The position numbers were made by a program, and so were the translations under genes. Below the pieces are notes generated by a model. The model did not search any database and had not been told where the DNA came from. It worked only from the letters and a program-made list of their open reading frames with translations. This document shows positions 23,940 to 40,203 of a stretch of 64,000 nucleotides of DNA, one piece after another; within the stretch, counting starts at the first letter, position 1, and each line of letters opens with the position of its first letter. This DNA is from Nostoc sp. DedSLP01 (GTDB taxonomy: Bacteria; Cyanobacteriota; Cyanobacteriia; Cyanobacteriales; Nostocaceae): positions 64,001-128,000 of the forward strand of contig JAVRCJ020000012.1 of the NCBI GenBank assembly GCA_034530875.2. Reading direction: 5' to 3'.

Positions 23940-24487
23940 AGAATTTGCCCCAAATACAATTCTGTCTTTTTATCTCTAGAGTTATCCGCAAGCAGCCAAT
24001 TTTGGATTTATCGCTTTATTTCTTACGTCTTTTCATCGCTATTAAAATTAATGATTATTAACTCTGAAAATTCGATTTGATAAAATTTAAATTGTCTCAA
24101 TTTAACTGAAGCAAAGTTATTCATAATATGAAATACAAAATCGATTTTTTATGAAAAAAATAAAAAAATAATCTTTCTCAATATATAAATATCTACGGAG
24201 AAATATCTTTGTTTGCGTTTGATAGCAATCAAAGTAAGTATATTAATGAAATTTTATTAAGAGAATTAGTAATACTAATTCTCTATCAAGCTAGGCACAG
24301 TGAAAAAATTCTCTTTCCCAGCTTGTGTAGTAAACATATCAAGGAAAAATAAGAAACTTATAGGGATGCCAAAATTTGTTTTCAATCGGCTCTTACTTAA
24401 TCGTATTCACAGTTAAACCATAGTTGAGGGCATCAACTCAGTGGAAAACACAAACAATAATAGGCTTTCAATAGTGCTGGCTATTGC

Positions 24488-24904
24488 CTATTGCCTGTTC
24501 GCTGTTATAAATTGCTCTTCAGTCGGCAAACTCCATCCAAGAATACAAGCGATCGCTGAATGCAAGGTCACTGGATTAAAAGGCTTGGCAATTGCTTTCA
24601 CCACCCCAAGCTGCTGAAGTTTTTGTGACGTAAACCAACTCGCTTTCACACTCAACAAGATGACTGGGATAGCTTTGGTTAAAGGATTTTCTTGCAATCT
24701 ATGCAGAAATGTGGTAGAGTCCATACCTGGCATTAAAACATCAAGCAAAATAGCATCAGGAGGTTCTATGGCTAGCTGTTTTAGTCCAGCTTGAGCCGAG
24801 GGAACCGCCACAACTCTCCATCCGGCTAAATCGCTTAAACACGCTTGCACAAGTTCTCGAATAGTCGGTTCGTCATCAATTAGCAATATTGTTTTGACTG
24901 TCAT
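24488..24904 (-). CDS. Single-domain response regulator
   Basis: ILLIDDE, DAILLDVLMP, IAKPF; paralogous to 41701-42081. Confidence 0.88.
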   Translation of the reverse strand: MTVKTILLIDDEPTIRELVQACLSDLAGWRVVAVPSAQAGLKQLAIEPPDAILLDVLMPGMDSTTFLHRLQENPLTKAIPVILLSVKASWFTSQKLQQLGVVKAIAKPFNPVTLHSAIACILGWSLPTEEQFITANRQ

Positions 24905-25134
24905 AATTAAAACGAGTTTTCCAAAAGGGAACGGGGAACAGGGAACATTGGGAATACAACTTGATTCTCAAAAAAACTAGCGGTTTTACAAGAGAATTTC
25001 CACTTTGTTCTGTGCTGTAAATTCAGCTTAGATCGAGAAAATAAGAAACTTATAGGGTGTTTGAGAGGCTATTCTCAAGGCAAAACTTGCTACAGACCGT
25101 GCCAAACCTGGGTCGCAACAGCAAATGGTTAAGG

Positions 25135-25190
25135 CTACGATGTACACACAAGTCGAATTTCTCTTGAAAAAACTTGTGTGTATCCCGTAG
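25135..25190. mobile_element. 56-bp minimal derivative of the IS at 47887-49373
   Basis: ctacgatgtacacacaagtc ... acttgtgtgtatcccgtag, near-identical to the IS termini. Confidence 0.8.
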
Positions 25191-25248
25191 CCCTGCCTAC
25201 ACAGCAATGGAATTATTAAGCCTATCAAGCGATCGCGAACTAAAAAAT

Positions 25249-26109
25249 CTAACCAAGGGTCATCAAAAATTTGCGGACAGATTGCTCAAACTCAGTAGGA
25301 GTTTCAAGGTGAGGAGAATGTCCTGCATTAAATGTTTCAACTTGAGCATTTGGAAATTTGTTAATTGCAGGTAAGCACCGCCGGAGTTGAACAAAGGGAT
25401 CGCGTAATGCCCAAGTAAAAAGTACGGGACACGAAATACTCGAAATCAGTTCTCTCAGGTCTGAGGTTGGTTCGGCAAAACTTTGCCATGCCTGAACTAA
25501 ATAAGGTGCCATTTCCCAAGAAGATGCTAATATTTTCTTTCTTTGACTGCGAGCAGCTTGCTTGGGAAGTATCACTCGATAAAAATCAGCAATAGCTTTA
25601 GGATACCACCAAGCTTTTGCCATTCCTCCTGAAAAAATTCGTACCATTAATTTGATAAATACTTGTGCCGAACTATCCATTGGATCGAGTCCACCAGGAT
25701 TTGCTAAAATTAGACCCAGCACGCGTTCCGGGTGGATATAAGCATATTTGATTGCCGTAGCTCCACCAATAGAATTTCCAATAATAACTACTTTATCTAA
25801 CCTCAATTTATCTAGGAATAGTGCCAGTAATTCAGAATATCTACTTGCACTAACAGGTTGCATATCATTGTCTGAATTCCCATGACCCGGAAAATCAATA
25901 GCAATAACTCGGTATTGGTTGCAAAGGTTTTCTCTTAAATACAAATAGTCACTTGCTCCATGTCCAATTGCATGAAGGCAAATGATAGGTAAGCCGATAC
26001 CATCATCATTATAAGCTAGATTTATTCCGTCTACTTCAAGCGTTTTCCACGGTTCAGTTGCCCCTAATGCTGCCCTTAGTCGAGTGTTATTTCCCATTGG
26101 CTTATACAA
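25249..26109 (-). CDS. Alpha/beta hydrolase, last gene of the biosynthetic cluster
   Basis: CLHAIGHG, DFPGHGNS, nucleophile GNSIGG, AGHSPHLE. Confidence 0.88.
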   Translation of the reverse strand: MYKPMGNNTRLRAALGATEPWKTLEVDGINLAYNDDGIGLPIICLHAIGHGASDYLYLRENLCNQYRVIAIDFPGHGNSDNDMQPVSASRYSELLALFLDKLRLDKVVIIGNSIGGATAIKYAYIHPERVLGLILANPGGLDPMDSSAQVFIKLMVRIFSGGMAKAWWYPKAIADFYRVILPKQAARSQRKKILASSWEMAPYLVQAWQSFAEPTSDLRELISSISCPVLFTWALRDPFVQLRRCLPAINKFPNAQVETFNAGHSPHLETPTEFEQSVRKFLMTLG

Positions 26110-26121
26110 ATTATTTTAGTA

Positions 26122-27312
26122 CTAGAAAATATCAGCAGGATCGGCTTCTTGTAACTTTTGTACTGCGAAGGCTCCGGCGATAAAGCACATTAAAATTGTC
26201 AGACACAAGACGAATACAGCACGAACAAATTCCATTTCTGTTGGCAGCCGGACAATGCGAACAACTAAATCATACAATAATACAGAAAAAGCAAATCCTG
26301 GAATATAACCTAAAACTGATAAAAATAATGATTCTTGAAAAACTACTTTTAAAAGATATTTATGACTATAACCAATAGCTTTCAGAGTTGCATACTCAGC
26401 TAAATGGTCGGAGACTTCACTATAGAGAACTTGATAGACAATAACTGAACCCACAATGAATCCCATTACTGTCCCTATAGTGAATATAGAACCAATGGGT
26501 GAACCTTGTCGCCAGTAATCTTTTTCCCGAGTCATATAACTCTCAAGGGTGAGTATTTTTACACCATTGGGAAGCTTAGCTGTTAAATTTTTAAGTACTT
26601 TTTGAATATTAGCATTAGGCTTGAGTTTAACTAAACCTACGCTCACCTTTTCCAAGGGTCTTTGAAGTAAACGTGAAAAATTCAAATCGCTAGTTATTAA
26701 AATTCCATCAGCAGAAAAAATCGAACCTCCTAAGCTGAATAAACCGCCAATTTTGATTTTGCGATCGTTTACTTCAGTTGCGATATTTTTTCCTTGTTTA
26801 AATTCGGTAGCAATGGGGCCAAAAACAGGCTTAGATAATCGGTCAAAAAGAACTACATCATCATATTTAAGTTTATTTAGATTCTGATTAACTTCAGGCA
26901 AATTAAAACATGGTTTTTCCGGATTACAGCCAAAAATTAATATTTGACGATTGCGCGGCTCTACAGGATTTTTCCAGTGGCCAAAACCCACATATAGAGG
27001 ATATGCTGTTTCTATACCATCAACCTCTAAACTTTTAGTTAAGTAACGCTTGGTAAAAGTCCGATACAATCCTACATCATATAAATTTTCAGCTCTGGGG
27101 TCGATCAAAATCAAGTCTGCACGCATATTCTGGTGTATATCTACAGCAGTTTTATATAAAGCGCCTTGGAAACCTAATTGCATAAACATTAAAAGGGTAG
27201 CAAAAGCAATTCCAGCCAAAGCTACTATAAACCGAGCCTTATTATGCGTTAATTGTAACCAGGATACGGGTACTTTTTGCATAATGAATTTGTATTTACC
27301 CATGAGAGCCAA
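26122..27312 (-). CDS. devC: DevC-family ABC exporter permease
   Basis: AGIAFATLLMFMQLGFQGALY, YQVLYSEVSDHLAEYATLKAIGY, terminal ADPADIF. Confidence 0.9.
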   Translation of the reverse strand: MALMGKYKFIMQKVPVSWLQLTHNKARFIVALAGIAFATLLMFMQLGFQGALYKTAVDIHQNMRADLILIDPRAENLYDVGLYRTFTKRYLTKSLEVDGIETAYPLYVGFGHWKNPVEPRNRQILIFGCNPEKPCFNLPEVNQNLNKLKYDDVVLFDRLSKPVFGPIATEFKQGKNIATEVNDRKIKIGGLFSLGGSIFSADGILITSDLNFSRLLQRPLEKVSVGLVKLKPNANIQKVLKNLTAKLPNGVKILTLESYMTREKDYWRQGSPIGSIFTIGTVMGFIVGSVIVYQVLYSEVSDHLAEYATLKAIGYSHKYLLKVVFQESLFLSVLGYIPGFAFSVLLYDLVVRIVRLPTEMEFVRAVFVLCLTILMCFIAGAFAVQKLQEADPADIF

Positions 27313-27388
27313 ATTTCATGTATTAACGACTTTGACGCTTGAAAAATTTTGATTCTTCCAATTAAGCTAGAAGAAATTTACGAAGAAA

Positions 27389-28618
27389 TTAAATATGAAT
27401 TGCTACATTCACTTTCAAGTTGGTTAAGCTTCTTACTTGTTGGCTACTCGCGGAGTCCAGCCTGATTTTGACTTCTACTACTCTAGCGTCTACAGCCACC
27501 ACTGGATCGTCGTTCAAAACATCTTTTTTACCAATTTGCCAACCAATTTGGTCTACATGACCTTGTAGTTTGTTGGTAAAAGTTTCACTAGTAATTACAG
27601 CTTTTTGACCGTTATTTATCTTAGTAATATCACTTTCATAAACTTCTGCGACTACATACATCTGGTCTGTTTGACCGATATCGGCAATTCCTTGGGTATC
27701 AATATTTTCTCCAGCGTGAGTATAGATTTTTAAAATTCGCCCAGCTATTGGCGATCGCACATAAGCTAGCTTGAGGTCGGCTTGAGCTTGTTTTACAGAG
27801 GCGATCGCACTTTCTAAGTCTGCTTGAGCCTCGTTGATATTTACCGGACGAATTTCAGCAATACGATTTAAAGTTGCTCTTGCTTCATTAATCTGTTCTT
27901 GGAGAGTTTTGACAGTACCATTAAAAGTAGCTTGTGCCTCATTTATCTGCTCTTGAATAGTTTCCATTGTCAAACGTTTACTATCTAAAAGCGAAATGGC
28001 GATCGCACCATCTTTATAGAGCTTCTCATAACGCGAATACTCTATTTGAGCGTTACTTAATTGAGTTGAAAGTTTAGCAATATTTGCTTTTTGAGCAATG
28101 CTTTCCTCGCTTAACTGTGCCTTTAATCGAGCAATCACCGCTTGTTGAGCAGATATTTCTCCTACTTGAGCGCCAGCTTTAACTTTGTCAAGACGCGCTT
28201 GAGCAACTTTGACTTGTGTTTGAGCCTTTTCTAAAGCAGCTTGACGAGTATCAAGGATATCCAGAATTGCAACTACCTGTCCGGGCCGAACTTGCTCTCC
28301 TTCCTTAACAAGTAGCTTCGCAATTCGCTTTTGCGTCTCTAGCATGGTTGGTGAAGACAGCTTAATAACTTCTCCTAGCGGTTCTAAGCGTCCATCCGCA
28401 GCAACAATATTGTCAGTAGAATTACCTCCTGGAGTGGCGGCGATGTCTGCATTATTCTGCTGAATAGCATGAGAACGAAAATACACAATAGCGTACACAG
28501 AAGCTCCACCAAAAGCTAAAGCTGTCACAATTGCCAAAATAATGACTCTCCAACTTTGGAGACCTGCATTCTTTAAAAACTGCTGATTGGTATTAGACGC
28601 TGGATAATCTTCTTGCAT
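27389..28618 (-). CDS. devB: DevB/HlyD-family membrane fusion protein
   Basis: GRLEPLGEVIKLS, LLVKEGEQV, coiled coil, VVAEVYESDI, DARVVEVKIRL. Confidence 0.9.
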   Translation of the reverse strand: MQEDYPASNTNQQFLKNAGLQSWRVIILAIVTALAFGGASVYAIVYFRSHAIQQNNADIAATPGGNSTDNIVAADGRLEPLGEVIKLSSPTMLETQKRIAKLLVKEGEQVRPGQVVAILDILDTRQAALEKAQTQVKVAQARLDKVKAGAQVGEISAQQAVIARLKAQLSEESIAQKANIAKLSTQLSNAQIEYSRYEKLYKDGAIAISLLDSKRLTMETIQEQINEAQATFNGTVKTLQEQINEARATLNRIAEIRPVNINEAQADLESAIASVKQAQADLKLAYVRSPIAGRILKIYTHAGENIDTQGIADIGQTDQMYVVAEVYESDITKINNGQKAVITSETFTNKLQGHVDQIGWQIGKKDVLNDDPVVAVDARVVEVKIRLDSASSQQVRSLTNLKVNVAIHI

Positions 28619-28625
28619 AAAAAGT

Positions 28626-28859
28626 TTAATTTTTAACGCGATTTACAAATAACTGAGTCAAGTCTCCTACAGTTTTAATATCTTGCAAATCTTCTTGTAA
28701 AAAACATACACGATACTCTTCTTGCAGTTCAATAATCATTTCAATTAAAACGAAAGATTCAGCAATAACATCGGTTAGTAAAGCTTCATCTTGCAGTTTA
28801 GAAATGGGTATTTTAGTAAAATCGGATATTTTTTCTTTTACAGTACTTTGAACTAACAT
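28626..28859 (-). CDS. Acyl carrier protein with atypical AESF motif
   Basis: 77 aa, acidic; IAESFVLIEMIIELQEEY...DIKTVGDL; AGGAG SD. Confidence 0.8.
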   Translation of the reverse strand: MLVQSTVKEKISDFTKIPISKLQDEALLTDVIAESFVLIEMIIELQEEYRVCFLQEDLQDIKTVGDLTQLFVNRVKN

Positions 28860-29012
28860 AGTATTTTCTCCTTCGTCATTTTTTGTTACTGTACTTCTAC
28901 ACCAAAAACAAGCAAATATTTTTAATAAAGCATAGAATTAATGGTTCCTTTGAATCCCCCACTAATTAATTCTGACTTCTGAATTCTGAATTCTGAGTTC
29001 TTCTTCAATGAT

Positions 29013-29573
29013 TTATCTTTTGATTAGATATTTGACTCTTTCCTCATGTTCGTTCATAGTTTGACGATAAACTTCTCGATCCGACTCTCCAAAACGTTTG
29101 AGAGTTGCTTGAATGTAATCTCTACCATAATCAGATTCCATATCCTTAAGAGCTTTTCCAACCCAAGTAGTATGCCACTTTTCATCTTTCATGATTTTCT
29201 CAAGAGTCTCTTTCACTTCTGGCTGAAGATTGAGAATCTGACTGTGAAGAGCATATTGCGTAATAACCCGTTTTTCAAAGACTTGAGTGATTGCTAGAAC
29301 CTCCATCAAATTCACAGGCATACCAGCTGCTGCTATATATTGATCTTGATAAGCATCAGTAAGTTTGAGCGCTTGAGCACCTAATTTTTCAATACATGCT
29401 GTCCAGTACCAAGCATGAAGACTTTCATCAGAAAAATGATTAGTCATATCACGCTGGATAGGGCCTGGTTTCATTGATTTGGCCAATCTGCCGAAAAAAA
29501 GTGCCCCACTGATTTCAGAAGTACGATAAAAGCTTAGAAGCCACAATTCATTTTCACTAAGTTTCTCAGACAT
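29013..29573 (-). CDS. Ferritin-like diiron protein
   Basis: Paired carboxylate/His motifs: SEISG...DESLH...FEKRV...DEKWH. Confidence 0.8.
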   Translation of the reverse strand: MSEKLSENELWLLSFYRTSEISGALFFGRLAKSMKPGPIQRDMTNHFSDESLHAWYWTACIEKLGAQALKLTDAYQDQYIAAAGMPVNLMEVLAITQVFEKRVITQYALHSQILNLQPEVKETLEKIMKDEKWHTTWVGKALKDMESDYGRDYIQATLKRFGESDREVYRQTMNEHEERVKYLIKR

Positions 29574-29616
29574 GAGAATACTCCTAACTTTTGGGTTAAT
29601 TCAATTTATCAAGATA

Positions 29617-29777
29617 GAATTCAGGAGTCAGGAGTCAGAATTCAGTATGAATTAGAGTCCGACTGGCGTCTGAATAATTGGGTTTAAGACCCAACAAAAT
29701 CGTAGATTTGGTAGTCTTGAATTAGTCGCGGTTCAGAATCACTAACTGATTGATTCTGACTCCTGAATTCTGAATTA
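29617..29777. mobile_element. GAATTCAGGAGTCA-ended repeat element inside the cluster
   Basis: gaattcaggagtcag ... ctgactcctgaattc; homologous to 22198-22503. Confidence 0.75.
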
Positions 29778-29795
29778 TTTTTCAATAAAAACACT

Positions 29796-30890
29796 TTATA
29801 CTTGTTTAGCCCATTTTTGTTTCAAAAGGTATTGGCAAGTATTTTCAATTAAAGTTTGGGGATTTTCAGCTTGATAGTTATCAAAAGCTGAAACTAGTTT
29901 TTGATTATTGATTTCTTTGTCAATGAACAGTTGCTTAGAAAAAGGAGATACACTAGAAACTGCTTCATTAACAATATTTCCGCCAAAGCCTTTTACAGCA
30001 TCTACAAGAAAATTAAAAGATTCTGGATCGGCATAAAGTGGCTTCAGAACTCGCCGCACTTTAAATTCTGGCGTTTGAGTAAAAGTTGTAAATGCAATAT
30101 CTATGATATCGCCCAAGCATGGTGATTCTGCTTTTGTATGGGCAATATGATAAATTTCTTGATTGCAAGAGCGACTCATCAACTTGAAAATTGCATCAGT
30201 GACAAAATCTCCTGTGACGAAATATAGTGGCGTTTCTGGTTTACCTGGAATTAAAGAAAGCAGACCATAATAAAGTAGCTTTAATGTATTATGGAAAGCA
30301 TTTTGTTGAGTCACATATCCTTGTATGTTATCCGCAATGACTGTTGCTACTCGAAATATGCTCCAAGGAAGATGAGAAAATTGGTTAATTAGTAAATTTT
30401 CAGATTCCCATTTTGACCACTCATAATAATTGGCAAAGCCATCTCGGTCGTCTAATGCAATTTCTGCAATTAAACCTGATTTTATCCCAGATGCATAAAC
30501 CGTACTTAATAAGCCAAATCCTTCTAAAGAGTGGCAGGTATTAGCAAAATTGAGCAGCTTTTCTGTTCCCTCAATATTAACTTGCCGAGCAGTTTCTCGG
30601 TCGACATTAAAGCGAGTTACTGAGGCAGAATGAACGATTAGTTTAATTTCTCCTGGGTCAATTAAATTAAATGGTTGTGCTTGTCTTAAATCACCCCAGG
30701 AATAGCTAACGCGTTCAGAGTAATTGTCTAGATAAAGATTGAGTTTTTCTACCTTGTTTTGAAACTCATGTTCGTCATTTGCCCTTACCCAAAGTAGTAT
30801 AGGTTCCTGTGTTACTTGCAAATATTTTCTGGCTATGCGAGAACCAATATAGCCATCGCCACCTGTAATTAAAATTTGTTTTTTAGACAT
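29796..30890 (-). CDS. Extended SDR, thioester reductase / fatty acyl reductase-like
   Basis: ILITGGDGYIG, GDL, VHSAS, NIEGT, catalytic YEWSK. Confidence 0.82.
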   Translation of the reverse strand: MSKKQILITGGDGYIGSRIARKYLQVTQEPILLWVRANDEHEFQNKVEKLNLYLDNYSERVSYSWGDLRQAQPFNLIDPGEIKLIVHSASVTRFNVDRETARQVNIEGTEKLLNFANTCHSLEGFGLLSTVYASGIKSGLIAEIALDDRDGFANYYEWSKWESENLLINQFSHLPWSIFRVATVIADNIQGYVTQQNAFHNTLKLLYYGLLSLIPGKPETPLYFVTGDFVTDAIFKLMSRSCNQEIYHIAHTKAESPCLGDIIDIAFTTFTQTPEFKVRRVLKPLYADPESFNFLVDAVKGFGGNIVNEAVSSVSPFSKQLFIDKEINNQKLVSAFDNYQAENPQTLIENTCQYLLKQKWAKQV

Positions 30891-31773
30891 TTGCTACCTT
30901 CTCTAACTGTAAATGCGGCCAATTAGTTTCATCAGTTCCAAATTGTGTTAAAAAAGCAAATATCCATCGTTCGATTCCGAAGGCTACACAGCCAGAGAAA
31001 GCATCTTGACCGTCTCGCTGAATTTGAAATGTTTCTCCAAAATAATTTCGATGGAAATTGACTGAGCCAATAGCCAGACTATTTTGAAATACCATTTCTG
31101 TTTTTACTGGTGCTAGCTTTTGCGCTAAATATTTAGGATTTTGCAAAGGATTAAAAAATGGATCTGTTGCTTCATCCCAGTCAATTGGCAGGTTAATTGT
31201 AGTAAATAAATGTTCTAATTTTTGTCGATAGTTATCCAAAAATACTTTCACTTCATCTGCTGTGCCAATACATACAATTTCTCGCATAGAAAAATTCCAT
31301 TGGCGTTCGAGGGGTCGATAATATGACTCTCGTCGAAAACAATTTCCTCTAGTTGTCAAGTACTTTGGTCTATTGAGATTCTGTCCTTGAAATTGAATGT
31401 AAAAGTGATAGCAGGCTGCTGGTGTGAGAACATCCCGAATTGGCCCTGGTGCTGTCAATTGGACTTCTCCGGCTGCTGAAATAGGTTGTCCCTCAGCAAA
31501 AGTCTTTAAATTCTTTTCCTCTGGATTTAGGAAAACTGGAAATGTGACTAAATGAGGAAAAGAACGAAAATATTCTAGGCGTTCTAGTTCGCGTGCAGAA
31601 ATAAAAGTTGGAAACAGATGTTCTTGAGCAGTACATTCTCTAGCCAAGCTGATAAAAAACTGGTCGAGTTTGTGATAAAGCTTGAGCAAATTACCGCTAA
31701 ATGCTGATTGACCATTGGGAAACCAACGATAATCTGCTAGGTTTTCAAAGTTAATTTTAGTGTTATTTTCCAT
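30883..31773 (-). CDS. Amino acid:[carrier protein] ligase (class II SerRS catalytic-core homolog)
   Basis: YFRSFPH, TPAACYHFY, motif 2 CFRRE...RQWNFSMRE, motif 3 SGCVAFGIERW; no tRNA-binding domain. Confidence 0.85.
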   Translation of the reverse strand: MENNTKINFENLADYRWFPNGQSAFSGNLLKLYHKLDQFFISLARECTAQEHLFPTFISARELERLEYFRSFPHLVTFPVFLNPEEKNLKTFAEGQPISAAGEVQLTAPGPIRDVLTPAACYHFYIQFQGQNLNRPKYLTTRGNCFRRESYYRPLERQWNFSMREIVCIGTADEVKVFLDNYRQKLEHLFTTINLPIDWDEATDPFFNPLQNPKYLAQKLAPVKTEMVFQNSLAIGSVNFHRNYFGETFQIQRDGQDAFSGCVAFGIERWIFAFLTQFGTDETNWPHLQLEKVANV

Positions 31774-32026
31774 TGGTTACCTCTTGAAAAAAATTGTGGT
31801 GTATGGCGTTAATATCTCGAAAAACCTTGTGTTTGATATTAGAGAAGTTAATGGGGCGATCGCTTAATTGTTCGATAAACAAAAGTAGTTCCATTACTTG
31901 CAGTGAAGAAATAATTCTACGTTCAATAATGGGTGTATCATCCTTGAGTTCATCGCTTTGAATCTTGCCATTTGTATTCACTATCCATTCATGCAATGCC
32001 TGTTTAATTTCTAATTCAGTTTTCAT
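31763..32026 (-). CDS. Carrier protein, probable partner of the ligase
   Basis: 87 aa from ATG 32026 (ATGA overlap); DDTPIIERRIISSLQVMELLLFIE. Confidence 0.8.
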   Translation of the reverse strand: MKTELEIKQALHEWIVNTNGKIQSDELKDDTPIIERRIISSLQVMELLLFIEQLSDRPINFSNIKHKVFRDINAIHHNFFQEVTNGK

Positions 32027-32883
32027 AACGCAGGTTCCTCTTCTAAAATGCCAGCATCTACAAAAAACCGAATACATTTAGCTGAGATTTCTTGTCGATG
32101 TTTTTGGCATTGAGGATGTGAAAAAGCCTTTTCTCTGACTTCATAAGGTTTTTCTAGACCAGCATCTTTATACACATCTGGGTTATAATATTCTGCCCAA
32201 GTTCCCACAAAATAATTTTGTAAATATTTGCGGATATTTTGCAGAGTTTCTGCTGACCATGAGGTGGAATAGCGGTCAAAAAGTTCTTTGACGATTTGAC
32301 GACCAAATATCAGATGACGTACTTCTTCTTGATGATGAAAAAGATTGATTTGGCGTGCAAGAGGAACTAGACTTTCATCTTGTGACATCCTCCAGTTATA
32401 CACATCCACGATTTCTTCAAAAATTACAACTTTAGTGAAAAATAGAAAGTCTTCTTCACCGACTTCATATTCTCGTGGAAATGCAATCTTTTTATTTCGA
32501 TATATCTTTCCAGCATATTTCTTGCAGAAACCGCCAAAATGTAGCATGTGCTTGTTCTCTTCATCTAAAAAATGATGCAGATAAGCAGAATATGAGCTTT
32601 TATCTGGTTCGTATAGCCGTTGGGACAGCCCTGATATCAGTGCCTTTTCACCATGAATATTGAGGCTGAAAAAATTGACTGCTTCGTAAAAACTAAGCCT
32701 TTTCTGCTCAATCTCCGTCAAATTTTCATAGAATTCAGTGCCGTAAAGTGAGATTAATTGCGGACTCGTAAACCATTGTTCTAAGTCGAGAACTTCCGGC
32801 CACTCCAAATATACGTAAGGATTGATATATTTTTTTCTGGAAGCATCACAAAGTTTTTCAACTACATTAGTTAATCTGTCCAT
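32023..32883 (-). CDS. AurF/CmlI-like diiron oxygenase
   Basis: HGE...DEENKH...FEE...HHQEEVRH ligand pattern. Confidence 0.82.
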   Translation of the reverse strand: MDRLTNVVEKLCDASRKKYINPYVYLEWPEVLDLEQWFTSPQLISLYGTEFYENLTEIEQKRLSFYEAVNFFSLNIHGEKALISGLSQRLYEPDKSSYSAYLHHFLDEENKHMLHFGGFCKKYAGKIYRNKKIAFPREYEVGEEDFLFFTKVVIFEEIVDVYNWRMSQDESLVPLARQINLFHHQEEVRHLIFGRQIVKELFDRYSTSWSAETLQNIRKYLQNYFVGTWAEYYNPDVYKDAGLEKPYEVREKAFSHPQCQKHRQEISAKCIRFFVDAGILEEEPAL

Positions 32884-32886
32884 TGT

Positions 32887-33837
32887 TTAAATTTTCTCCA
32901 AAATTACAGATTGCCAGTTCAAGCCATAACCTGCCATAACCAACATGATGCGATCGCCTGATTTAATTTTTCCTGAGTTCATTAACCATGTAAGATTAAT
33001 AATGTTATCGCCACTAATTACATGACCCGCTTCTGGTAGTGATTGAAAGTAAACTCGCTCTGGATCGAACTTGAGAATACGAGACAATATCTGCCAAGCA
33101 TTAATGTGAGTATTTTGACTAACAATCCAATCTATTTGTCCTATCTCCAGATTAGTTTTTCTCAATATTTCTTGAATGAGCCGATAGGTATAACTAAAAT
33201 AACTTCCTACTGTTTCATCATCTGAGGCCAGATACATTGCTCCGTTGGTAATTGCATGGTTAGCAATTAATCGAAAACCTGCTGGCTCATGAGAAACTAT
33301 ACAAGCAGCTGCTCCATCAGAAATAAGATTATATGCTTGTTCGTATAAAGCTTCTTGGGGAAATCTATCTGATGTTACACATAAAACGCGCTTCACATCT
33401 GGTTCGCATAACAAAAGCATTTTAGCTAAATGCAAAGAACCTAACATTCCCGTACAAGCCTGCTGATTTAATCCAATCACAGTTGCTCTTTCTATCCCGA
33501 AATCGCTCTGCAAATGACTTGCTGGGAAATCCATTAAATACTTAACATCTCTAGTTTCTTGAAACTTTTCATAGTAACCGATATTCCCATTCATCGGAAT
33601 ACAAGTAGAATAAACAATTGCTCCAATATCACCTAAATCATCTTGAATTTTCTCAATTGCCAACTTTGCTAAATCGTAAGCATTAGTCTTTGACGAACAA
33701 ACATAATGTTTGCGAAATCCAGCTTCTTGTAAAACCGAAGTAGTTGAAAGTGTTCTTCCCTGGGCTACTGCTTCCTCTACAGTATATGTTTCATCACCTA
33801 AAACATAAGAAAAATTATTGACAAATACTTCATTCAT
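32887..33837 (-). CDS. FabH/KAS III-like condensing enzyme with non-canonical active site
   Basis: QQACTG Cys, SDGAAA, SQNTH in place of PHQAN, GHVISGD in place of GNTS, AGYGLNW. Confidence 0.85.
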   Translation of the reverse strand: MNEVFVNNFSYVLGDETYTVEEAVAQGRTLSTTSVLQEAGFRKHYVCSSKTNAYDLAKLAIEKIQDDLGDIGAIVYSTCIPMNGNIGYYEKFQETRDVKYLMDFPASHLQSDFGIERATVIGLNQQACTGMLGSLHLAKMLLLCEPDVKRVLCVTSDRFPQEALYEQAYNLISDGAAACIVSHEPAGFRLIANHAITNGAMYLASDDETVGSYFSYTYRLIQEILRKTNLEIGQIDWIVSQNTHINAWQILSRILKFDPERVYFQSLPEAGHVISGDNIINLTWLMNSGKIKSGDRIMLVMAGYGLNWQSVILEKI

Positions 33838-33839
33838 AG

Positions 33840-34412
33840 TTATTTAGTTTCCAATTTCGGAAAAAATCTACCTGTATGTTTGATATAAGCTTTATACTCG
33901 GCTCCAAATTCAGATGCTGACAAGCGTTTTTCTTCTCTAGCCGCAGTTATATTTAACGCTACTAATCCATAAATCAAGGTGAATATTGTTCCTGGATGGG
34001 GATATAAAATAAATCCTCCCAAAAGACTTAAGAGAAAAGATGTATAAAAGGGATGGCGGATTTTGCCATAAGCGCCATAAGTCACAATGTGTTTTGGCCG
34101 ATCGTTATTTTGATGCCACAAGGAAAGGGGAATTCGATGGGTACCAAGAGTAAAGAAAATTAAAGAAATAGAAGCAACGCTAAATGGCACAGATAACAAA
34201 TCATTGTGAAAATTCCATAACTGCCCGTACTTTAAGAGTGGCGTTACCAATTTGAAATAGGAATTTAAAAGCAACAATGGGCACAGAAGGAAAGGAGCAG
34301 CTGTACTCCACCACTTAAGATTTTTGCGGCCATCTTGTCTAAAGAATACATAAGGTAGGCTGCCAATCACTAGGAAATCGATCGCATAGAGCAGTAAAAC
34401 AGATTCATTCAT
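33840..34412 (-). CDS. Isoprenylcysteine carboxyl methyltransferase (ICMT/PEMT)-family membrane methyltransferase
   Basis: GAYGKIRHPFY, REEKRL, FGAEYKAY...RFFP; several TM helices. Confidence 0.85.
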   Translation of the reverse strand: MNESVLLLYAIDFLVIGSLPYVFFRQDGRKNLKWWSTAAPFLLCPLLLLNSYFKLVTPLLKYGQLWNFHNDLLSVPFSVASISLIFFTLGTHRIPLSLWHQNNDRPKHIVTYGAYGKIRHPFYTSFLLSLLGGFILYPHPGTIFTLIYGLVALNITAAREEKRLSASEFGAEYKAYIKHTGRFFPKLETK

Positions 34413-34416
34413 TTTT

Positions 34417-36105
34417 TTACTCCAAAGTATTTATCCATTCAAGAACTAGTGGACGCTTGATTTTACGAGTGGAGGTTTTTGGTAAAGCTTCTAAGTGCAT
34501 GAATATGCGTGATGGTCGTTTATAAGACGCTAGATTTGTAGCTAAGTTGGCAATCTCTCGTTCAATTTCTCTTAATAAAGCTTCGGGTTTTGTTTGTAGT
34601 TCTTGTTTGATGAAGTCAGAGGGAACAACTACAGCGCAAACTTCTTCGGTATCTTTCTTGATTCCATATTTCGCTAGTCTGCCTAGTACACAAATTTCTT
34701 GAATTGCAGGACTCTTAGACAAAATAGCTTCTACTTCTTCAGGATTAACTTTTTTACTACCTCCTAAAACAATCAGATTTTTAATCCGTCCTGTAATGTG
34801 GAGAAATCCATCAGCATCAATAACCCCCAAATCGCCTGTATGAAACCATCCATCCCGATCTAAAACTTGCCTGGTTAACTCTTCACTTTTGTAATACCCT
34901 TTCATCACATGAGGGCCGCGAGTCAAAACTTCACCTTGAGTTTGTTCTGGTTCTGGGGAATCAATTTTGATTTCTACACCAGGCAGAGGTTTACCAACAG
35001 AGCCAATACGATTGGCTTTTGGACTGTTAACGCAGATTACTGGCCCAGTCTCTGTTAGTCCGTAACCTTGAATGATTGGTAACCCAATTTGCTCAAAAAA
35101 GCCGGCCACATCCATATCAAGAGCAGCGCCGCCTGAGATAAAAAGGCGGAATTTACCACCAAATTTCTGATGTATTGGGAAGAAAATTATTCGTCGAGCC
35201 GTTTGCCAAGGTAACTTCTTAGCCAAGGTCATAGCACCTTGAAACCATAAGCGTTTTAGTGGCGTACCACGAACGACTTCTTTTTGAATACTGTTGTAGA
35301 GGGTTTTAAAAAATAATGGTACTCCCAGGATTGCTGTAATCTGACGCTCCTGCATCATCTGTAAAATGTCCTGTGGATAGAGGCTTTGAGCATAACAAAC
35401 TGTGCCTCCTGCATAAAGCACACTGAGCAAACCTCCACTCAACTCCAGAAGATGGTTGAGCGGCAAAATCGATAGAAAAGAGTCATTAGGCCCGATTCCT
35501 ACAAGCTTTCCGAGTGTTTCAGCCTCAAAAATCAAATTTCTAAATGCGATCGCCACACCCTTTGGTTTACCCGTGGTTCCAGAGGTGTAAATGATACTAG
35601 CTACTTCATCCAACTGGCGTTCTTGGAATTGCAGAATGTCTTGAGATTGTATTGATTCAGATGGTAAATCAATCGCTACTTTTTCTAATGTCAATACTTG
35701 TGCAATAGAAACAACACTACTTTTTAATTTGTCAGCAATATTTTGATGAGACAAAGATGTTAAGAGTATTTGAGGAACACAATCACTAAGTATTGAGTTC
35801 AGTTCAGTTTCACTTAACTTGATATCTAAAGGAACTACAATCGCACCTGCCAAAAATCCGGCAAATAATCCAATACTCCATTCGGGTCGAGATTCTGAGA
35901 GAATAGCGATGCGATCGCCAGGCTGGATACCAGACTCAATCAGATAATTAGCCAGATTACAGGCTCTTTGTCCAAGTTCTGCATAGCTCAAATTCTGCCA
36001 ATTGTCGCCGTTTTTTATACAAAGAGCTGTTTTCGATCCAAACTGCTCTAATTTACTTTTCAACAAGCTTAAAACACTATTTGTAATAGGATAATCATCT
36101 TTCAT
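34417..36105 (-). CDS. Long-chain acyl-CoA/acyl-ACP synthetase (AMP-binding)
   Basis: YTSGTTGKPKG, QGYGLTET, GWFHTGDLG, GRIKNLI, PKTSTRK. Confidence 0.9.
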   Translation of the reverse strand: MKDDYPITNSVLSLLKSKLEQFGSKTALCIKNGDNWQNLSYAELGQRACNLANYLIESGIQPGDRIAILSESRPEWSIGLFAGFLAGAIVVPLDIKLSETELNSILSDCVPQILLTSLSHQNIADKLKSSVVSIAQVLTLEKVAIDLPSESIQSQDILQFQERQLDEVASIIYTSGTTGKPKGVAIAFRNLIFEAETLGKLVGIGPNDSFLSILPLNHLLELSGGLLSVLYAGGTVCYAQSLYPQDILQMMQERQITAILGVPLFFKTLYNSIQKEVVRGTPLKRLWFQGAMTLAKKLPWQTARRIIFFPIHQKFGGKFRLFISGGAALDMDVAGFFEQIGLPIIQGYGLTETGPVICVNSPKANRIGSVGKPLPGVEIKIDSPEPEQTQGEVLTRGPHVMKGYYKSEELTRQVLDRDGWFHTGDLGVIDADGFLHITGRIKNLIVLGGSKKVNPEEVEAILSKSPAIQEICVLGRLAKYGIKKDTEEVCAVVVPSDFIKQELQTKPEALLREIEREIANLATNLASYKRPSRIFMHLEALPKTSTRKIKRPLVLEWINTLE

Positions 36106-36135
36106 ATCCAGTACTTTTTCGATAGTTGTGATTAA

Positions 36136-37932
36136 TTAAGCAACTTCAGAAGCTTCAATTTCGGATTTGTCTGAACTAATTTGGTTCAGATTATAAATCC
36201 ACTTACCAACAACATTTAGGTTATCTGCAAGAAACTGCGATCGACAGATATGGCGTTGTAATTTACCACTAGAAGTCTTGAGAATACTCCCCATTTTCAC
36301 CAAAACTACAGCATATATCTGCAAACCATGCTCTTTTGCAACTGATTGACGAATAGCCGCAACCATCCGATCGAGATTCACATCCCGATAATGACGCTCA
36401 ATCTCCTGAACAACTACCAACTGCTCAAGGCCATTTACTGCAATGGTAAAAGCTACACCACAGCCCAAGCGCAGTTTAGGATTAGTCTTTTGCACCGTCA
36501 GTTCTATATCGTGAGGATAATAACTACAGCCATCTAAGACAATCAAATCTTGCAAGTATCCGATGACAAACAATTCACCATTACTAAAAAATCCCAAATC
36601 ACCGGTACGGAAAAAAGGCTCTGACGCTGCACTAGCATTGGTATCTGCTAAGTAAGCTTGGAAAGCACTCTTTGTTTGTTCTGGCTGGTTCCAATAACCT
36701 TGGGTAATATTAGACCCAGATAACCAAATCTCCCCTACTTGTTCGGGTAGACATGGGACTAACTTATTGGGATCGACAATTAATATTTTTTGGTCAGATA
36801 CTGTTTGTCCGCAACTGACGAATTTTTTCGTGTTTCGATCCTCTAGCGCTGTTGGCACTATCTGATTATGCTTGAGCGCTTCTTTTTGAAAAGACTGAAT
36901 CACAGGGGAAGTGGTTTTCGCTCCTCCGGAAACGAATAAAGTTGCTTCACCCAAACCATAACAAGGATAAAAAGCCTCTCTTTGGAAGCCACAGGGTTCA
37001 AAAGCTTCTGCAAATTGGTCTAATGTCTCAGCACGAATAGGCTCTGAGCCAATAAAAGCCAGATCCCAACTACTCAGGTCTAGGAGTTTCTTTTGTTCGG
37101 AACTGATACTGCGAACGCATAAATCATAACCAAAATTAGGCCCTCCGCTAGTATTAACTTTGTAACGAGAAATTGCCTCTAACCATTGAAATGGCTGCTG
37201 TACAAATGTCATTGGTGACATAAGTATGCAGGGAATACCTACATACAGAGGCTGTAATATATTTCCGATCAGACCCATATCATGGTAGGGAGGCAACCAG
37301 CCTGCAACAATAGACTGTTGTGTATGCTGGAAAGCTTCTTGAATCATGCTTTCGTTGTAGAGTATGTTCCCATGACTCACCATTATTCCTTTTGGTGTGG
37401 CTGTAGATCCTGATGTGTATTGCAGAAATGCCAACGTATCGCTGTTGATTATTGGTTCTTCCCAGTCTAAAACCTCATCATTGTTCGGGTTATCGGTTAT
37501 TAGCCAATGCAATGAAGCCAACTCCGGAGTTGCGGAAAATTGCTCTTTTAAGCTAGTCAATACAGATGTGGTAGTTAGTGCTACTGTAGCTTGAGCATCT
37601 TTGATAATTGCCATCAATCTGGAGACTTTTTGCCGACTGGGTGGATAAGCTGGAACTGCAACTACCTTGGCATACAAACATCCAAAGAAGGCAGCAATGT
37701 AGTCTAATCCTGGTGGATAGAGGAGTAGTGCGCGTTCGCCAGTAGCTTTCATCGATTGTAATTGTACTGCGATCGCTCTGGCCTGTGATTCTAACTCTCG
37801 ATAACTTAGACGAGCTAATTCTATGCCGTTGTTTTGCAGAAAAATATAAGCAATTTGGTCTGCTTGTTCTTGAGATCTGTAAGATAGAAGATCGGTTAAA
37901 GTAGAAAATTTATACATAACTGTTACCAACAA
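36136..37932 (-). CDS. Fatty acyl-AMP ligase (FAAL)
   Basis: LLLYPPGLDYIAAFFGCLYA, FLQYTSGST, WLPPYHDMGLIG, PCYGLGEATL, FRTGDLG, KTSSGK; start may be ATG 37917. Confidence 0.9.
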   Translation of the reverse strand: MLVTVMYKFSTLTDLLSYRSQEQADQIAYIFLQNNGIELARLSYRELESQARAIAVQLQSMKATGERALLLYPPGLDYIAAFFGCLYAKVVAVPAYPPSRQKVSRLMAIIKDAQATVALTTTSVLTSLKEQFSATPELASLHWLITDNPNNDEVLDWEEPIINSDTLAFLQYTSGSTATPKGIMVSHGNILYNESMIQEAFQHTQQSIVAGWLPPYHDMGLIGNILQPLYVGIPCILMSPMTFVQQPFQWLEAISRYKVNTSGGPNFGYDLCVRSISSEQKKLLDLSSWDLAFIGSEPIRAETLDQFAEAFEPCGFQREAFYPCYGLGEATLFVSGGAKTTSPVIQSFQKEALKHNQIVPTALEDRNTKKFVSCGQTVSDQKILIVDPNKLVPCLPEQVGEIWLSGSNITQGYWNQPEQTKSAFQAYLADTNASAASEPFFRTGDLGFFSNGELFVIGYLQDLIVLDGCSYYPHDIELTVQKTNPKLRLGCGVAFTIAVNGLEQLVVVQEIERHYRDVNLDRMVAAIRQSVAKEHGLQIYAVVLVKMGSILKTSSGKLQRHICRSQFLADNLNVVGKWIYNLNQISSDKSEIEASEVA

Positions 37933-38160
37933 AGAATTGGCGTAAAACTTTTTAGTCTGATGATGTCGATCGACTTTGATTAGTTTGATGGTTTATACCA
38001 TTTCACTTGAAAAATAATAATTTAAATTGCTTTTAATACCTTCTAGACACTACTAGTTGTACTTTTTTATAAAAATATCGGTTGATTTGCTAACAAGTAA
38101 GTCCTTGTATCGCTTATTATTCTGTTTATTAATTATAATTTATAGGTTTTACATACTAAC

Positions 38161-38655
38161 CTAAACTCTTTGGTTAATATAATTAATAATTTGCTGCACA
38201 GTTGTAAGGGTTTGAGCAGTTTGAGCAGAAATTTCAATGTCAAAAGCTTCTTCTATAGCAACCATTAGTTCTAGCATATCTAAAGAATCTATCCTGAAAT
38301 CTGCTGTTAAATTTGCAATAGGAACAATTTTGTCTGGTTCAATTCCTAATTTATCTGTAATGATACTGGATATTTTTTGAAAAACCCCTAGTTTCTTTAG
38401 CTGGTTGTTATGAAACACAGTTTTAATTTCTTCTGATAGGATTACCACCTCTTTTAAAATTAGAATTATACGTAGGTAACGTTGAATGTTTTCATTATCT
38501 AAAGGATAATTATGATATTTCAACCAATTTCTGCAAATTTGATATGTATTACCGTATAAGTTAAAAGCATCTAAGGTTAAGCCCTCAGAGGATGAATCTT
38601 GAATATTCTTATTAATAAGAGGAATAGTATTTTTTTGGGGTGATTCATTTTGCAT
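38161..38655 (-). CDS. Acyl carrier protein with about 90-aa N-terminal extension
   Basis: C-terminal IDSLDMLELMVAIEEAFDIEI...LTTVQQIINYI. Confidence 0.82.
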   Translation of the reverse strand: MQNESPQKNTIPLINKNIQDSSSEGLTLDAFNLYGNTYQICRNWLKYHNYPLDNENIQRYLRIILILKEVVILSEEIKTVFHNNQLKKLGVFQKISSIITDKLGIEPDKIVPIANLTADFRIDSLDMLELMVAIEEAFDIEISAQTAQTLTTVQQIINYINQRV

Positions 38656-39144
38656 ATAATTATTGAAAAATAGGATTGAACCCTGAAGAGCCGTTGATTT
38701 TAGTTAGGAATAGAATTTGCCACCATTCTATTAGACTCTGCGTTTCAAGTCAGGGGCGTTGTTGGTGGGTAAAGAGTCCAGCGCAAGCGTAGGTGCAGTT
38801 CATCGCAGACATCGCGATCGCCAGTCCCATAACTTCAGTTAAAATCTTTATTATTTCCTCAACTTCGATGACGATTAGCTGACAAGTTGATTTTTAAAGG
38901 TATGCAGCTCCTTTTTAGGACATAATATTAACATCTCTCTAAACAGCTAATATAATGTTGATATTTATCTATGGGTAGTACCCATAAGGGTAATATTTTA
39001 GGCTTTGGAGAAAAATAAGTTTTCGCGTATTGTATGACTCTGTTGGCGAATTCAAAAAGCTCCTGCAAGGTTACTTTTCATAAAATAACCGAGTAAACTA
39101 TATAAGTTTACTGCTGGGAAAACTCAATAACTTTTATTAAGTAG

Positions 39145-39275
39145 ATAAAACTCACATTTGATTGCGTGAAAAAAACAGTACATCCAGACAAGGCTTTTGT
39201 CCTACTCCCTACTCCCCATTCCCTACTCCCTGTCTAGACAAATAAATTCTCCAAATCAAACCGGACTCCCATATA
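39145..39275 (-). mobile_element. TA-ended MITE family with STRR core, copy 2
   Basis: Near-identical to 58739-58869; reverse complement of 17533 and 54074 copies. Confidence 0.8.
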
Positions 39276-39744
39276 CATTATTTCTCTTATGTTTGAACTC
39301 AAGGTAGTTAAGTAGAAGGCAGGAGGCAGTTATTGCTGGAGGCAGAAGGTAAAACCCTCAATAGTAAAAGGTTTCGCTCCTTTAGATTTTACATTTAATT
39401 ATGTCCGCCTACTTAGACATGAATGTAGATTTTTAATTTGTACTTATTAGTTATTGTCAAGCTTTTATCTAGCCTTTATGCCGCATGTCAGTTTTTGTAA
39501 CAGTTTTTAATAACACCTCATCGATCGCAGTCGCTTTAACACACATGCAACAGAAGTTTGACCAGCGGTCGAAGCGATCGCGAGTTTGTTACGCTTACCG
39601 CCGATTGAATTAGGGTGCAAGATTTTGGCAAAGCACTGTCAGAAATCCTTAGCAGCGCAAAGTTGCCCAAAAGAGCTTATGAGTTTTTGCTAACCCAAAA
39701 GTGGATTTTTCAAGCACGATCGAGCCGCGTTGTAATTCTACACT

Positions 39745-39880
39745 CAATACGGTTCGGTTAACGTGTTTATTCCTCGAAGATCTCCCCAACCCCTCGATAA
39801 ATTCGGTGGCTCACAACCCTTTTTTACCCTCTTTTTAATGGGGTCGCCGTAGGCGGGGGGGTCTTAACGGAACCGTATTG
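39745..39880 (+). mobile_element. MITE, CAATAC family, 136 bp
   Basis: 17-bp inverted ends caatacggttcggttaa / ttaacggaaccgtattg (1 mismatch); perfect duplication attctacact (39735-39744, 39881-39890). Confidence 0.88.
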
Positions 39881-39949
39881 ATTCTACACTGGTATACGTA
39901 TCGTTGCTGTCTAGAACAATACCATAAAATTTTCAAGTCTGGGTGTCAT

Positions 39950-40040
39950 CAATACCCTTCAGTTAAGCTTTTTTCTCCCCCCCTGCTTCCTCTGCCTCCT
40001 CTGCTTCCCTTAACAGATAAATTCCTTAACCTAAGTATAT
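39950..40040. mobile_element. Degenerate MITE similar to 3788-3885
   Basis: caatacccttcagttaagc...cctctgcctcctctgc...ataaattccttaacc. Confidence 0.7.
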
Positions 40041-40136
40041 CGAGGTAGAATTAAGAGGTTTTTGTCTTCTTTGTCAAGGAGAATCTAAAAATGTTTCAAA
40101 TCGCAACAAAACATTTTTCAAACATTCTCTAAAGGT

Positions 40137-40203
40137 TTTACTATTTTTCTTTTTATAAAAAAAATTGAGAGGTTAAGACTTTACTATTTTTCTTTTTATA
40201 AAA
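40137..40203. repeat. 24-bp perfect direct repeat at 43-bp spacing
   Basis: tttactatttttctttttataaaa at 40137-40160 and 40180-40203. Confidence 0.8.

Follow-up and report, generated by a model that had tools for sequence, protein, structure and literature searches.

The window analysed here, a stretch of 64,000 nucleotides of a contig of Nostoc sp. DedSLP01 (JAVRCJ020000012.1, positions 64,001 to 128,000), carries 14 open reading frames (ORFs) at positions 25249-38655, all on the minus strand and in the order listed in a preliminary description made from the sequence alone. Several genes overlap or lie close together, as had been described, the spacing being -11 to +30 bp at nine of the 13 junctions; the transcript could be broken at the other four, which measure 228, 222, 153 and 76 bp. 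The preliminary description took all 14 genes as one cluster. A conserved unit does exist, but it comprises nine genes, encoding an acyl ligase, an ICMT-like methyltransferase, a KAS-III-like enzyme, an AurF-like enzyme, a carrier, an aminoacyl-tRNA synthetase (aaRS)-like ligase, a reductase, a ferritin-like protein and the acyl carrier ACPb, whereas ACPa, a fatty acyl-AMP ligase (FAAL), DevB, DevC and a hydrolase are add-ons outside this core. We give about an even chance to the reading that the cassette, free of nonribosomal peptide synthetase (NRPS) and polyketide synthase (PKS) genes, makes a small glycine-derived N–O lipid from a glycyl-carrier that would be N-oxidised, acylated, reduced off its carrier and capped. 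The genes are the following (aa, amino acids).

38161..38655, minus strand: ACPa, an acyl carrier with an N-terminal extension of about 88 aa, accessory (PP-binding at 93-160, DSL at 123)
36136..37932, minus strand: FAAL, accessory, the second ligase of the window (NCBIfam FAAL models score best)
34417..36105, minus strand: long-chain acyl-CoA/ACP ligase, core (AMP-binding)
33840..34412, minus strand: ICMT-family membrane methyltransferase, core (profile match to ICMT 4a2n, E 2e-15)
32887..33837, minus strand: KAS-III-fold acyltransferase of the CerJ/ChlB3 type, core (Cys128-His272-Asp277)
32023..32883, minus strand: AurF-like ferritin-fold diiron protein, predicted N-oxygenase, core (Pfam AurF, 127 bits)
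31763..32026, minus strand: aminoacyl carrier protein, 87 aa, core (Ser in ISSLQV; position; carrier-AurF fusions in relatives)
30883..31773, minus strand: amino acid:carrier protein ligase with a glycine-type pocket, core (best PDB match Bll0957, E 7e-33)
29796..30890, minus strand: stand-alone thioester reductase (NAD_binding_4), core (Pfam, 112 bits; TIGR01746 under cut-off)
29013..29573, minus strand: small ferritin-like diiron protein with an ADO-like fold, core (six invariant ligands; fold match)
28626..28859, minus strand: ACPb, an acyl carrier, core (PP-binding; Ser35, AESF)
27389..28618, minus strand: DevB membrane-fusion protein, accessory exporter (TIGR02971, 371 bits, over cut-off)
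26122..27312, minus strand: DevC ABC permease, accessory exporter (TIGR01185, 461 bits, over cut-off)
25249..26109, minus strand: alpha/beta hydrolase, accessory (Abhydrolase_1, GNSIG at 111)

The names of 13 of the 14 genes are backed by Pfam or NCBIfam and agree with those given before, several scores lying under the curated cut-offs (141 versus 357 bits for the aaRS-like ligase, 56 versus 160 bits for the ICMT-like protein). The aminoacyl carrier matches no Pfam or NCBIfam family and is recognised by its position, its Ser motif and the fusions. Single-sequence PDB searches with the AurF-like and ferritin-like proteins were uninformative; Foldseek gave no match at E 0.001, and the Atlas matches were unnamed or generic clusters. 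Each of the seven distinctive genes is present in a single copy in the source genome (E 1e-8), which has a GC content of 41 %.

Conservation was examined with two anchors. A scan of GTDB genomes with the ligase alignment yielded 458 relatives, of which the best 80 loci were used, while the ferritin-like gene served as anchor in metagenomes, where the best 80 of 510 matches were used. Gene presence per locus was counted by tblastn. In the ligase-anchored set, the genes for the KAS-like enzyme, AurF, carrier, ligase, reductase, ferritin-like protein and ACPb are collinear on one strand in 48 of the 80 loci (43 of the 60 with enough flanking DNA), and all nine core genes, i.e., these seven with those for the ICMT-like protein and the AMP-ligase, are present in 43 of the 80. 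A chance arrangement is excluded by the recurrence of the seven genes in the same order and on the same strand, and the NRPS/PKS-free pathway with two carriers that had been proposed is supported and conserved elsewhere. The core genes average 43-62 % identity to those of the window, the ferritin-like gene being the most conserved (mean 62 %). In the metagenome set, the reductase gene was found in every one of the 39 loci that extend 1.2 kb or more upstream of the ferritin-like gene, ACPb in every one of the 61 that extend 400 bp or more downstream, and the ligase, AurF and KAS genes in every one of the 21 that extend 4.5 kb or more upstream. At E values up to 1e-10, 1447 relatives of the ligase were found, the best 120 of which are 59-92 % identical to it.

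A tree of five concatenated proteins was made with FastTree from the 50 loci in which all five are near-complete; its support values are SH-like only, compositional bias was flagged, and its taxon labels stem mostly from metagenome-assembled genomes (MAGs). Its loci bear 11 phylum-level labels, and its clades are for the most part coherent by phylum. The window clusters with Stigonema- and Dolichospermum-labelled copies (SH-like 100), the Stigonema MAG being its nearest neighbour; measured by path, the copies closest to this group bear Myxococcota, Nitrospirota and Acidobacteriota labels, and the Melainabacteria stand apart. With its gene order nearly fixed, the cassette is present in Acidobacteriota, Nitrospirota, Bdellovibrionota, Myxococcota, Actinomycetota, Melainabacteria and other lineages, most of them uncultured; its product is therefore likely to be an N–O lipid or signal that is common but has gone unseen. 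Among cyanobacteria the cassette is rare: none of 60 relatives of the host, 36 of them congeners, had the ligase, and none of the 400 genomes searched in the host's class matched the KAS profile; plasmids gave no match to the KAS protein at E 1e-20.

ACPa together with a second ligase is seen, among the 80 loci, in the window and in L002 only, which is also the only one of the 80 to combine a FAAL with an acyl-CoA-type ligase. DNA identity between the window and L002 is 88-91 % across 25211-37961; the ACPa homologue in L002 is only 35 % identical, while the neighbouring genes are 84-96 % identical. One AMP-ligase per cassette is typical. In 55 core loci, i.e., those with the KAS, AurF and reductase genes, the slot is filled by an acyl-CoA ligase (ACL)-type enzyme in 37 and by a FAAL-type enzyme in 13, with none in the available DNA of five; FAAL is the sole ligase in some loci. 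In L008 (3963-7370) and L009 (31-2871), this slot holds Aas-like fusions of MFS, acyltransferase and ligase. Other departures from the common layout were seen: a TPR gene is inserted between ligase and reductase in L059-L063 (Obscuribacterales), and in Actinocrinis (L045, L048, L051) the ligase is accompanied by a divergent KAS gene, 21-22 % identical, with no AurF within the available DNA of L048 and L051.

The ligase, of 296 aa, aligns with the Gly:carrier protein ligase Bll0957 of Bradyrhizobium (PDB 3MEY) over residues 40-287 and with type-2 seryl-tRNA synthetase (SerRS) in its C-terminal part only. It consists of the class II aaRS catalytic core, without a tRNA-binding domain. Residues C121, E165 and C262 align with the Cys, Glu and Cys of Bll0957 and are invariant in 79 of 79 sequences; we take both sets to be the Zn triad. 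At pocket position 264, all 79 sequences have Ala, as does Bll0957, whereas two type-2 SerRS have Gly. This Ala is said, in work of Mocibob in 2010, to restrict the Bll0957 pocket to glycine. The enzyme had been described as SerRS-like; its pocket resembles that of the glycine enzyme instead, from which we infer that the ligase would put glycine on its carrier. As in ligases of the Bll0957 type, a dedicated carrier with a phosphopantetheine Ser adjoins the ligase. With a score of 141 bits, the ligase falls short of the cut-off of the NCBIfam equivalog PRK07080 (357 bits), so that it appears to be the same kind of enzyme as the members of that family in a different subfamily. Bll0957 and the window ligase have in common the bare class II aaRS core, the Zn triad, the CVAFG pocket and the adjacent carrier; they differ in that the latter belongs to a subfamily of its own and to a pathway of nine genes in fixed arrangement.

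The carrier gene almost certainly starts at 32026, giving a protein of 87 rather than 104 aa, because the start codon then overlaps the AurF stop as ATGA and lies behind a purine-rich ribosome site. Of 52 aligned rows, 93 % or more keep the Ser of its ISSLQV motif.

In the AurF-like protein, E109, H112, E156, H183, E187 and H190 are present in 70 of 70 sequences, and E79 in the first helix in 63. The spacing H183-x3-E187-x2-H190 equals that of H225/E229/H232 in Dob3, and the H-x3-E-x2-H signature occurs in 108 of 118 near-full-length representatives. N-oxygenases of the ferritin-like diiron type are marked by a seventh His ligand (PMC12154687); H183 takes this place here, beside the canonical ligands. 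In six of 150 representatives, a C-terminal carrier-like domain is fused to AurF, three of these domains matching PP-binding, which points to a carrier-bound substrate. The ligand set and the fusions together suggest that oxidation of the amino acid's nitrogen probably takes place on the carrier and precedes joining, instead of following it as first proposed. The AurF-like enzyme would take the carrier-bound amine to the level of a hydroxylamine, an oxime or a nitronate, and an N–O compound would be expected in place of the lipo-amino alcohol suggested earlier.

More distant ligases occur in L076-L081, together with AurF proteins 34-37 % identical to that of the window and a nitronate monooxygenase gene. 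Chemistry leading from glycine to oxime or nitronate on a carrier has been described (PMC9967187), and by analogy these cassettes fit it; they look like a denitrifying variant of glycine-nitronate cassettes. In L076, L077, L080 and L081 (the latter from Streptomyces lavendulae NRRL B-2774), the genes for AurF, ligase, nitronate monooxygenase and carrier (about 9000-12100) lie beside an aminocyclitol-like gene set, annotated in L076 as class III aminotransferase, inositol monophosphatase, MOSC, phosphotransferase, alcohol dehydrogenase (ADH) and ROK. The AurF-ligase module was seen in further contexts: with O-methyltransferases and a B12 radical SAM protein in L079, with an O-methyltransferase and a phosphopantetheinyl transferase (PPTase) in L078, with heme-oxygenase-like, TauD and luciferase genes in L074, with a FAAL-NRPS and an acylase in L058, and with KAS, reductase, carrier and DUF3419 genes in L068.

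The enzyme proposed to join the two arms had been called FabH-like. The Cys-His-Asn triad of FabH is absent from it, the His position being Q241 and the Asn position H272 (GHVISGD replaces the Asn motif), and FabH-type chain initiation was rejected on this ground. It carries the His-Asp pair of CerJ and ChlB3: its Cys-His-Asp triad (GHxxxxD), C128/H272/D277, corresponds to C113/H296/D301 of ChlB3, with H272 and D277 present in 61 of 61 sequences and C128 in 58. In three rows, Ser replaces the catalytic Cys. ChlB3 and CerJ transfer acyl groups, forming C-S and C-O bonds, and acyltransferases with this triad have also been linked to C–N bond formation (PMC9573744). The triad and the thiolase fold are common to these enzymes and that of the window at about 20-22 % identity, but CerJ and ChlB3 work on polyketide or sugar whereas the window enzyme is encoded beside an aminoacyl carrier. 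In the reading preferred here, the acceptor of its acyl group would be a heteroatom in the glycyl unit after oxidation; an N-acyl hydroxamate or O-acyl oxime/nitronate would result.

Another course, close to that first proposed and following columbamide-like logic, would be for the KAS-like enzyme to amidate the unoxidised glycyl-carrier. The N-acylglycyl-carrier would then be converted by the reductase to an N-acyl-glycinal or N-acylethanolamine and methylated, while the two diiron enzymes would desaturate or hydroxylate carbon, or act at a later stage. In favour of this course are the free amine, the simplest of nucleophiles, the fit of reductase and methyltransferase, and the link of Cys-His-Asp acyltransferases to C–N bonds. 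We consider it rather unlikely, given that the seventh His of N-oxygenases is invariant, that AurF-carrier fusions exist and that the pair of AurF and ligase recurs without any KAS, beside nitronate monooxygenases; this recurrence implies that the substrate of AurF is most likely the free aminoacyl-carrier.

Carbon could also be the acceptor. AurF would then make a nitroacetyl-carrier, the nitronate of which is a malonyl-like carbon nucleophile that the KAS-like enzyme would C-acylate without decarboxylation. The products would be a 2-nitro-3-oxo-alkanal or -alkanol, a nitro-sphingoid-type lipid made without pyridoxal phosphate, from which the ADO-like enzyme may trim C1 and in which the nitronate O would be capped with methyl or aminocarboxypropyl. 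We hold this to be unlikely, and know of no enzyme that C-acylates a nitronate. A nitronate would need no decarboxylating His/Asn, which the KAS-like enzyme lacks; the ICMT-like protein is without the Arg that presumably binds the substrate carboxylate in ICMT; and an ADO-like fold adjoins the reductase. There is precedent for glycine-to-nitronate conversion and for nitronate O-methylation (PMC9967187, PMC12154687), and DpsC, a member of the same clade as CerJ and ChlB3, makes C–C bonds (PMC9573744). The His-Asp pair, in contrast, points to heteroatom transfer. In NocG of the nocuolin pathway, E100 is the Glu base of non-decarboxylative Claisen enzymes (PMC9486936); it aligns with Met102 of the KAS-like enzyme, next to an Asp103 kept in 53 of 61 sequences. 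If the C–C version were true, C–C bonds would be formed here by a new logic, and a new class of lipid would be spread over about ten phyla.

In the N–O lipid pathway, the acyl group would come from ACPb, of which Ser35 is invariant in 48 of 48 sequences and which the AMP-ligase would charge with a fatty acid; after joining, the reductase would free an aldehyde or alcohol. The R-domain motifs of the reductase are TGGDGYIG (TGxxGxxG) and Y156/K160 (YxxxK), the latter present in 62 of 62 sequences. P0141, a fusion of 974 aa, unites in one protein three families that are encoded by separate genes in the window: NAD_binding_4 reductase, alpha/beta hydrolase and AurF-like domain.

The small ferritin-like protein has E20, E50, H53, E100, E131 and H134 in 55 of 55 sequences and Ile at the position of the seventh ligand, which argues that it is not an N-oxygenase. 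Its model (pLDDT 90) is an E, ExxH, E, ExxH bundle as in the cyanobacterial aldehyde-deformylating oxygenase ADO. The fold search is led by 3ez0 (Z 18.2), and four of the top six rows are proteins with ADO activity (Z 16.1-17.8; root-mean-square deviation (rmsd) 2.6-2.8; 173-183 aligned residues), tied with a PaaA/C-like protein (Z 16.4). These matches make deformylation of the released aldehyde plausible, by the mechanism described for ADO (PMC9743570). The ferritin-like gene is not found in L057, L066 and L071, nor are those for ACPb and the AMP-ligase, while KAS, AurF, carrier, ligase and reductase persist; in L026 it has been relocated together with ACPb, and in L021 ACPb is separated from it. 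Its joint loss with ACPb while the reductase stays, and the joint move in L026, suggest action on acyl-ACPb. The enzyme would thus either modify acyl-ACPb or later deformylate the released aldehyde.

A reductase adjoining a six-ligand ferritin-like diiron protein, with folds of ADO activity among its closest, recalls the pair of AAR and ADO in cyanobacteria (PMC9743570). The differences are that identity to proteins with ADO activity is 12-14 %, that none of the Pfam matches of 54 ferritin-like members is to the ADO family, and that the window reductase belongs to NAD_binding_4 and not to AAR. This pair enters a further, very unlikely, course in which the task of the KAS-like enzyme would be limited to passing the acyl group from one carrier to another, and the reductase would turn acyl-ACPb into a fatty aldehyde; the ferritin-like enzyme would then deformylate this aldehyde, or a nitroaldol or nitrone would be formed by its condensation with the glycyl unit after N-oxidation. 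ChlB3 is itself a carrier-to-carrier transacylase (PMC9573744) and the top, though tied, structural match, and the family of the reductase includes fatty acyl reductases. On the other hand, the five genes retained in L057, L066 and L071 in the absence of the ferritin-like, ACPb and AMP-ligase genes tie the reductase and the KAS-like enzyme to the aminoacyl arm, and no other joining enzyme is conserved.

The last step of the N–O lipid pathway would be the capping of a free O with the methyl group of S-adenosylmethionine (SAM) by the membrane methyltransferase. Its SAM-binding C-terminal motifs RHPxY, EExxL and RFxP are present, together with at least two hydrophobic segments, and H120, Y123, E160, E161 and R182 are invariant in 48 of 48 sequences. 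It is not an ICMT proper: besides the low score, Thr156 (Ala in an alternative register) occupies, in 48 of 48 sequences, the position four before EE at which Arg is found in ICMT. The distribution of this gene supports a capping role. In the 55 core loci, an ICMT-like gene alone was found in 46, the pair DUF3419 and GNAT alone in seven, neither in two (with short flanks) and both in none; in the 41 loci flanked on both sides by 6 kb or more, the numbers are 35, six, zero and zero, respectively. The DUF3419 and GNAT queries were taken from L025 and L071, which therefore match by construction. The swap occurred on at least three branches with ICMT-bearing sisters (L016, L025 and L028/L038) and also in L057, L066 and L071, outside the tree. 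DUF3419 is the annotation of a putative betaine lipid synthase (PMC10685587), and BtaA moves a 3-amino-3-carboxypropyl moiety from SAM (PMC10491745, PMC11869996). The replacement of one SAM-dependent alkylating system by another implies a common nucleophile on the lipid product and suggests that the ICMT-like enzyme and the BtaA-like DUF3419 protein with GNAT provide alternative SAM-derived caps, methyl in most loci and, probably, aminocarboxypropyl in the other lineages.

The BtaA-like cap, from the family of betaine-lipid synthases, could also mean that a lipid of the membrane or envelope, free of phosphorus and similar to betaine lipids, is made or modified by the cassette, and that no diffusible metabolite is released. 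The largely phylum-coherent clades suggest long residence, and Aas-like acyltransferase-ligase fusions, MMPL and FtsX/LolA-like genes lie beside some loci. Such a role is in part compatible with an N–O lipid, but we regard it as most improbable in view of the extreme patchiness of the cassette (0/60 relatives, 0/400 class genomes) and of its variable exporters, which are typical of specialised metabolism.

DevB, DevC and the hydrolase are placed after the core in all three cyanobacterial copies (window, L002, L040), and in L002 and L040 devA comes next after the hydrolase. The preliminary description did not mention that the window locus lacks the DevA ATPase gene and a PPTase gene. Only devB and devC of the devBCA set lie together here; seven devA paralogue matches (59-71 %) are present elsewhere in the source genome, and in the cyanobacterium the product would be exported by DevBC with a DevA encoded elsewhere. 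A dedicated PPTase gene is found in 38 of 55 core loci; the source genome has one PPTase match, outside the window locus. The reductase-ferritin gap of the window corresponds to the position of the PPTase gene in other loci. PPTase is fused to the ferritin-like protein in P0121 and to ACPb in L053 and L055, L049 being alike by ORF length.

Families, catalytic residues, fixed linkage, fusions and the cap swap were observed; glycine loading, carrier N-oxidation, acyl transfer, reductive release, SAM capping and export are inferred, and several points weigh against the N–O lipid. A hydroxamate is made less likely by the fact that AurF-type enzymes usually carry the oxidation beyond the hydroxylamine. 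Between the AurF profile and the solved AurF and CmlI, similarity is weak (E 0.004-0.013). Support for glycine specificity comes from one pocket residue and a reported mutagenesis result. The KAS model (pLDDT 96) matches ChlB3 with Z 34.0 (rmsd 2.5, 294 aligned), FabHB with 33.9 and CerJ with 32.2, a tie that leaves the fold undecided between ChlB3 and FabH, and DpsC makes C–C bonds. For the ferritin-like protein, either of two roles may hold, as set out above. No DUF3419 locus is present among the 80 of the metagenome set, so that a single data set, of related genomes, underlies the swap pattern, and since the loci are related, a Fisher p of 2e-7 overstates the exclusivity of the caps. Most loci are MAGs, the taxon labels of which may be wrong.

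The nearest known relatives of the cassette are the glycine-nitronate cassettes, with which the oxime logic of akazaoxime/A-76356 and althiomycin is grouped. He and Ryan reportedly described in 2021 a glycine-derived nitronate in the case of enteromycin carboxamide. Carrier-bound glycine, a ferritin-like diiron N-oxygenase and SAM-dependent O-alkylation would be common to both, glycine and alkylation being presumed for the cassette of the window. This cassette has no NRPS, and neither a nitronate monooxygenase nor a soluble O-methyltransferase is present among the ORFs of the window; in the ligase-anchored loci, the former is found solely in L076-L081 and matches to the latter solely in L009, L078 and L079. 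The ICMT-type enzyme may fill the role of the nitronate O-methyltransferase. Over these cassettes, the window has a fatty-acyl arm, the CerJ/ChlB3-type enzyme, a reductase, a second diiron protein and the membrane ICMT-type methyltransferase.

The ham and pvf pathways have reductive release and fatty acylation in common with the window, ham being built on an A-T-R NRPS. The ham pathway (fragin/valdiazen) further shares an amino acid on a carrier, an AurF-type N-oxygenase and a second diiron protein (PMC11705231). Its valine, heme-oxygenase-like diiron protein, cupin and cyclase are absent from the window, which differs in its aaRS-like ligase, ferritin-fold second diiron protein, KAS-type transferase, methyltransferase and lack of a second N source. 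Identity with ham/pvf was rejected, the cassette being free of NRPS genes. By analogy, the first half of the cassette appears to work like the glycine-nitronate and ham/pvf pathways while belonging to neither.

The nocuolin A cluster noc is likewise cyanobacterial, with FAALs, ACPs, a stand-alone ketosynthase, a methyltransferase and AurF-distant diiron proteins; it differs in its PKS and NRPS genes, the Cys-His-Asn NocG with Glu100 and the methionine-salvage genes, and its main-text descriptions mention no aaRS-like ligase (PMC5333925, PMC9486936). It was considered and rejected as the identity of the cluster. Nor is the window set among the types of CylC halogenase cluster in the accessible text of PMC8406957. 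That the gene set had not been recognised as a characterised pathway agrees with the literature searched, to which supplements and most subscription journals did not belong and which contains no description of it.

The cassette gives a concrete pathway context to a large subfamily of aaRS-like carrier ligases. It combines three enzymes without assigned chemistry (the KAS-type transferase, the ADO-like diiron protein and the ICMT-type protein) with a natural swap of two SAM-derived caps, and its nine small stand-alone genes are amenable to in vitro rebuilding.

No Rfam family was found in 24000-41700. Promoter-like sites were not in excess (39 observed versus 46.9 in shuffles), and terminator-like sites numbered 14 versus 10.6 in shuffles (standard deviation 3.3), about one standard deviation higher. 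Both gaps beside the ferritin-like gene, at 28935-29009 and 29605-29789, are filled with short tandem repeats of heptamer type and an inverted pair. A 21-bp inverted repeat lies at 25133-25192, directly downstream of the hydrolase gene, where the homology with L002 stops and devA is missing. The segment 38656-40654 is a region of 2 kb free of ORFs of at least 70 aa and without an Rfam match, with an inverted pair at 39739-39886; a 43-nucleotide tandem duplication is present at 40132-40217. The flanks that were tested have no close orthologues in 80 congeners, and their DNA matches are only 66-73 % identical, except for one piece of 135 bp, which leaves the insertion site undefinable. Two-component genes flank the cluster (17834-24904 and 40655-47697), as do genes for an AAA_35 protein and for a small calcium-binding protein with RTX repeats.

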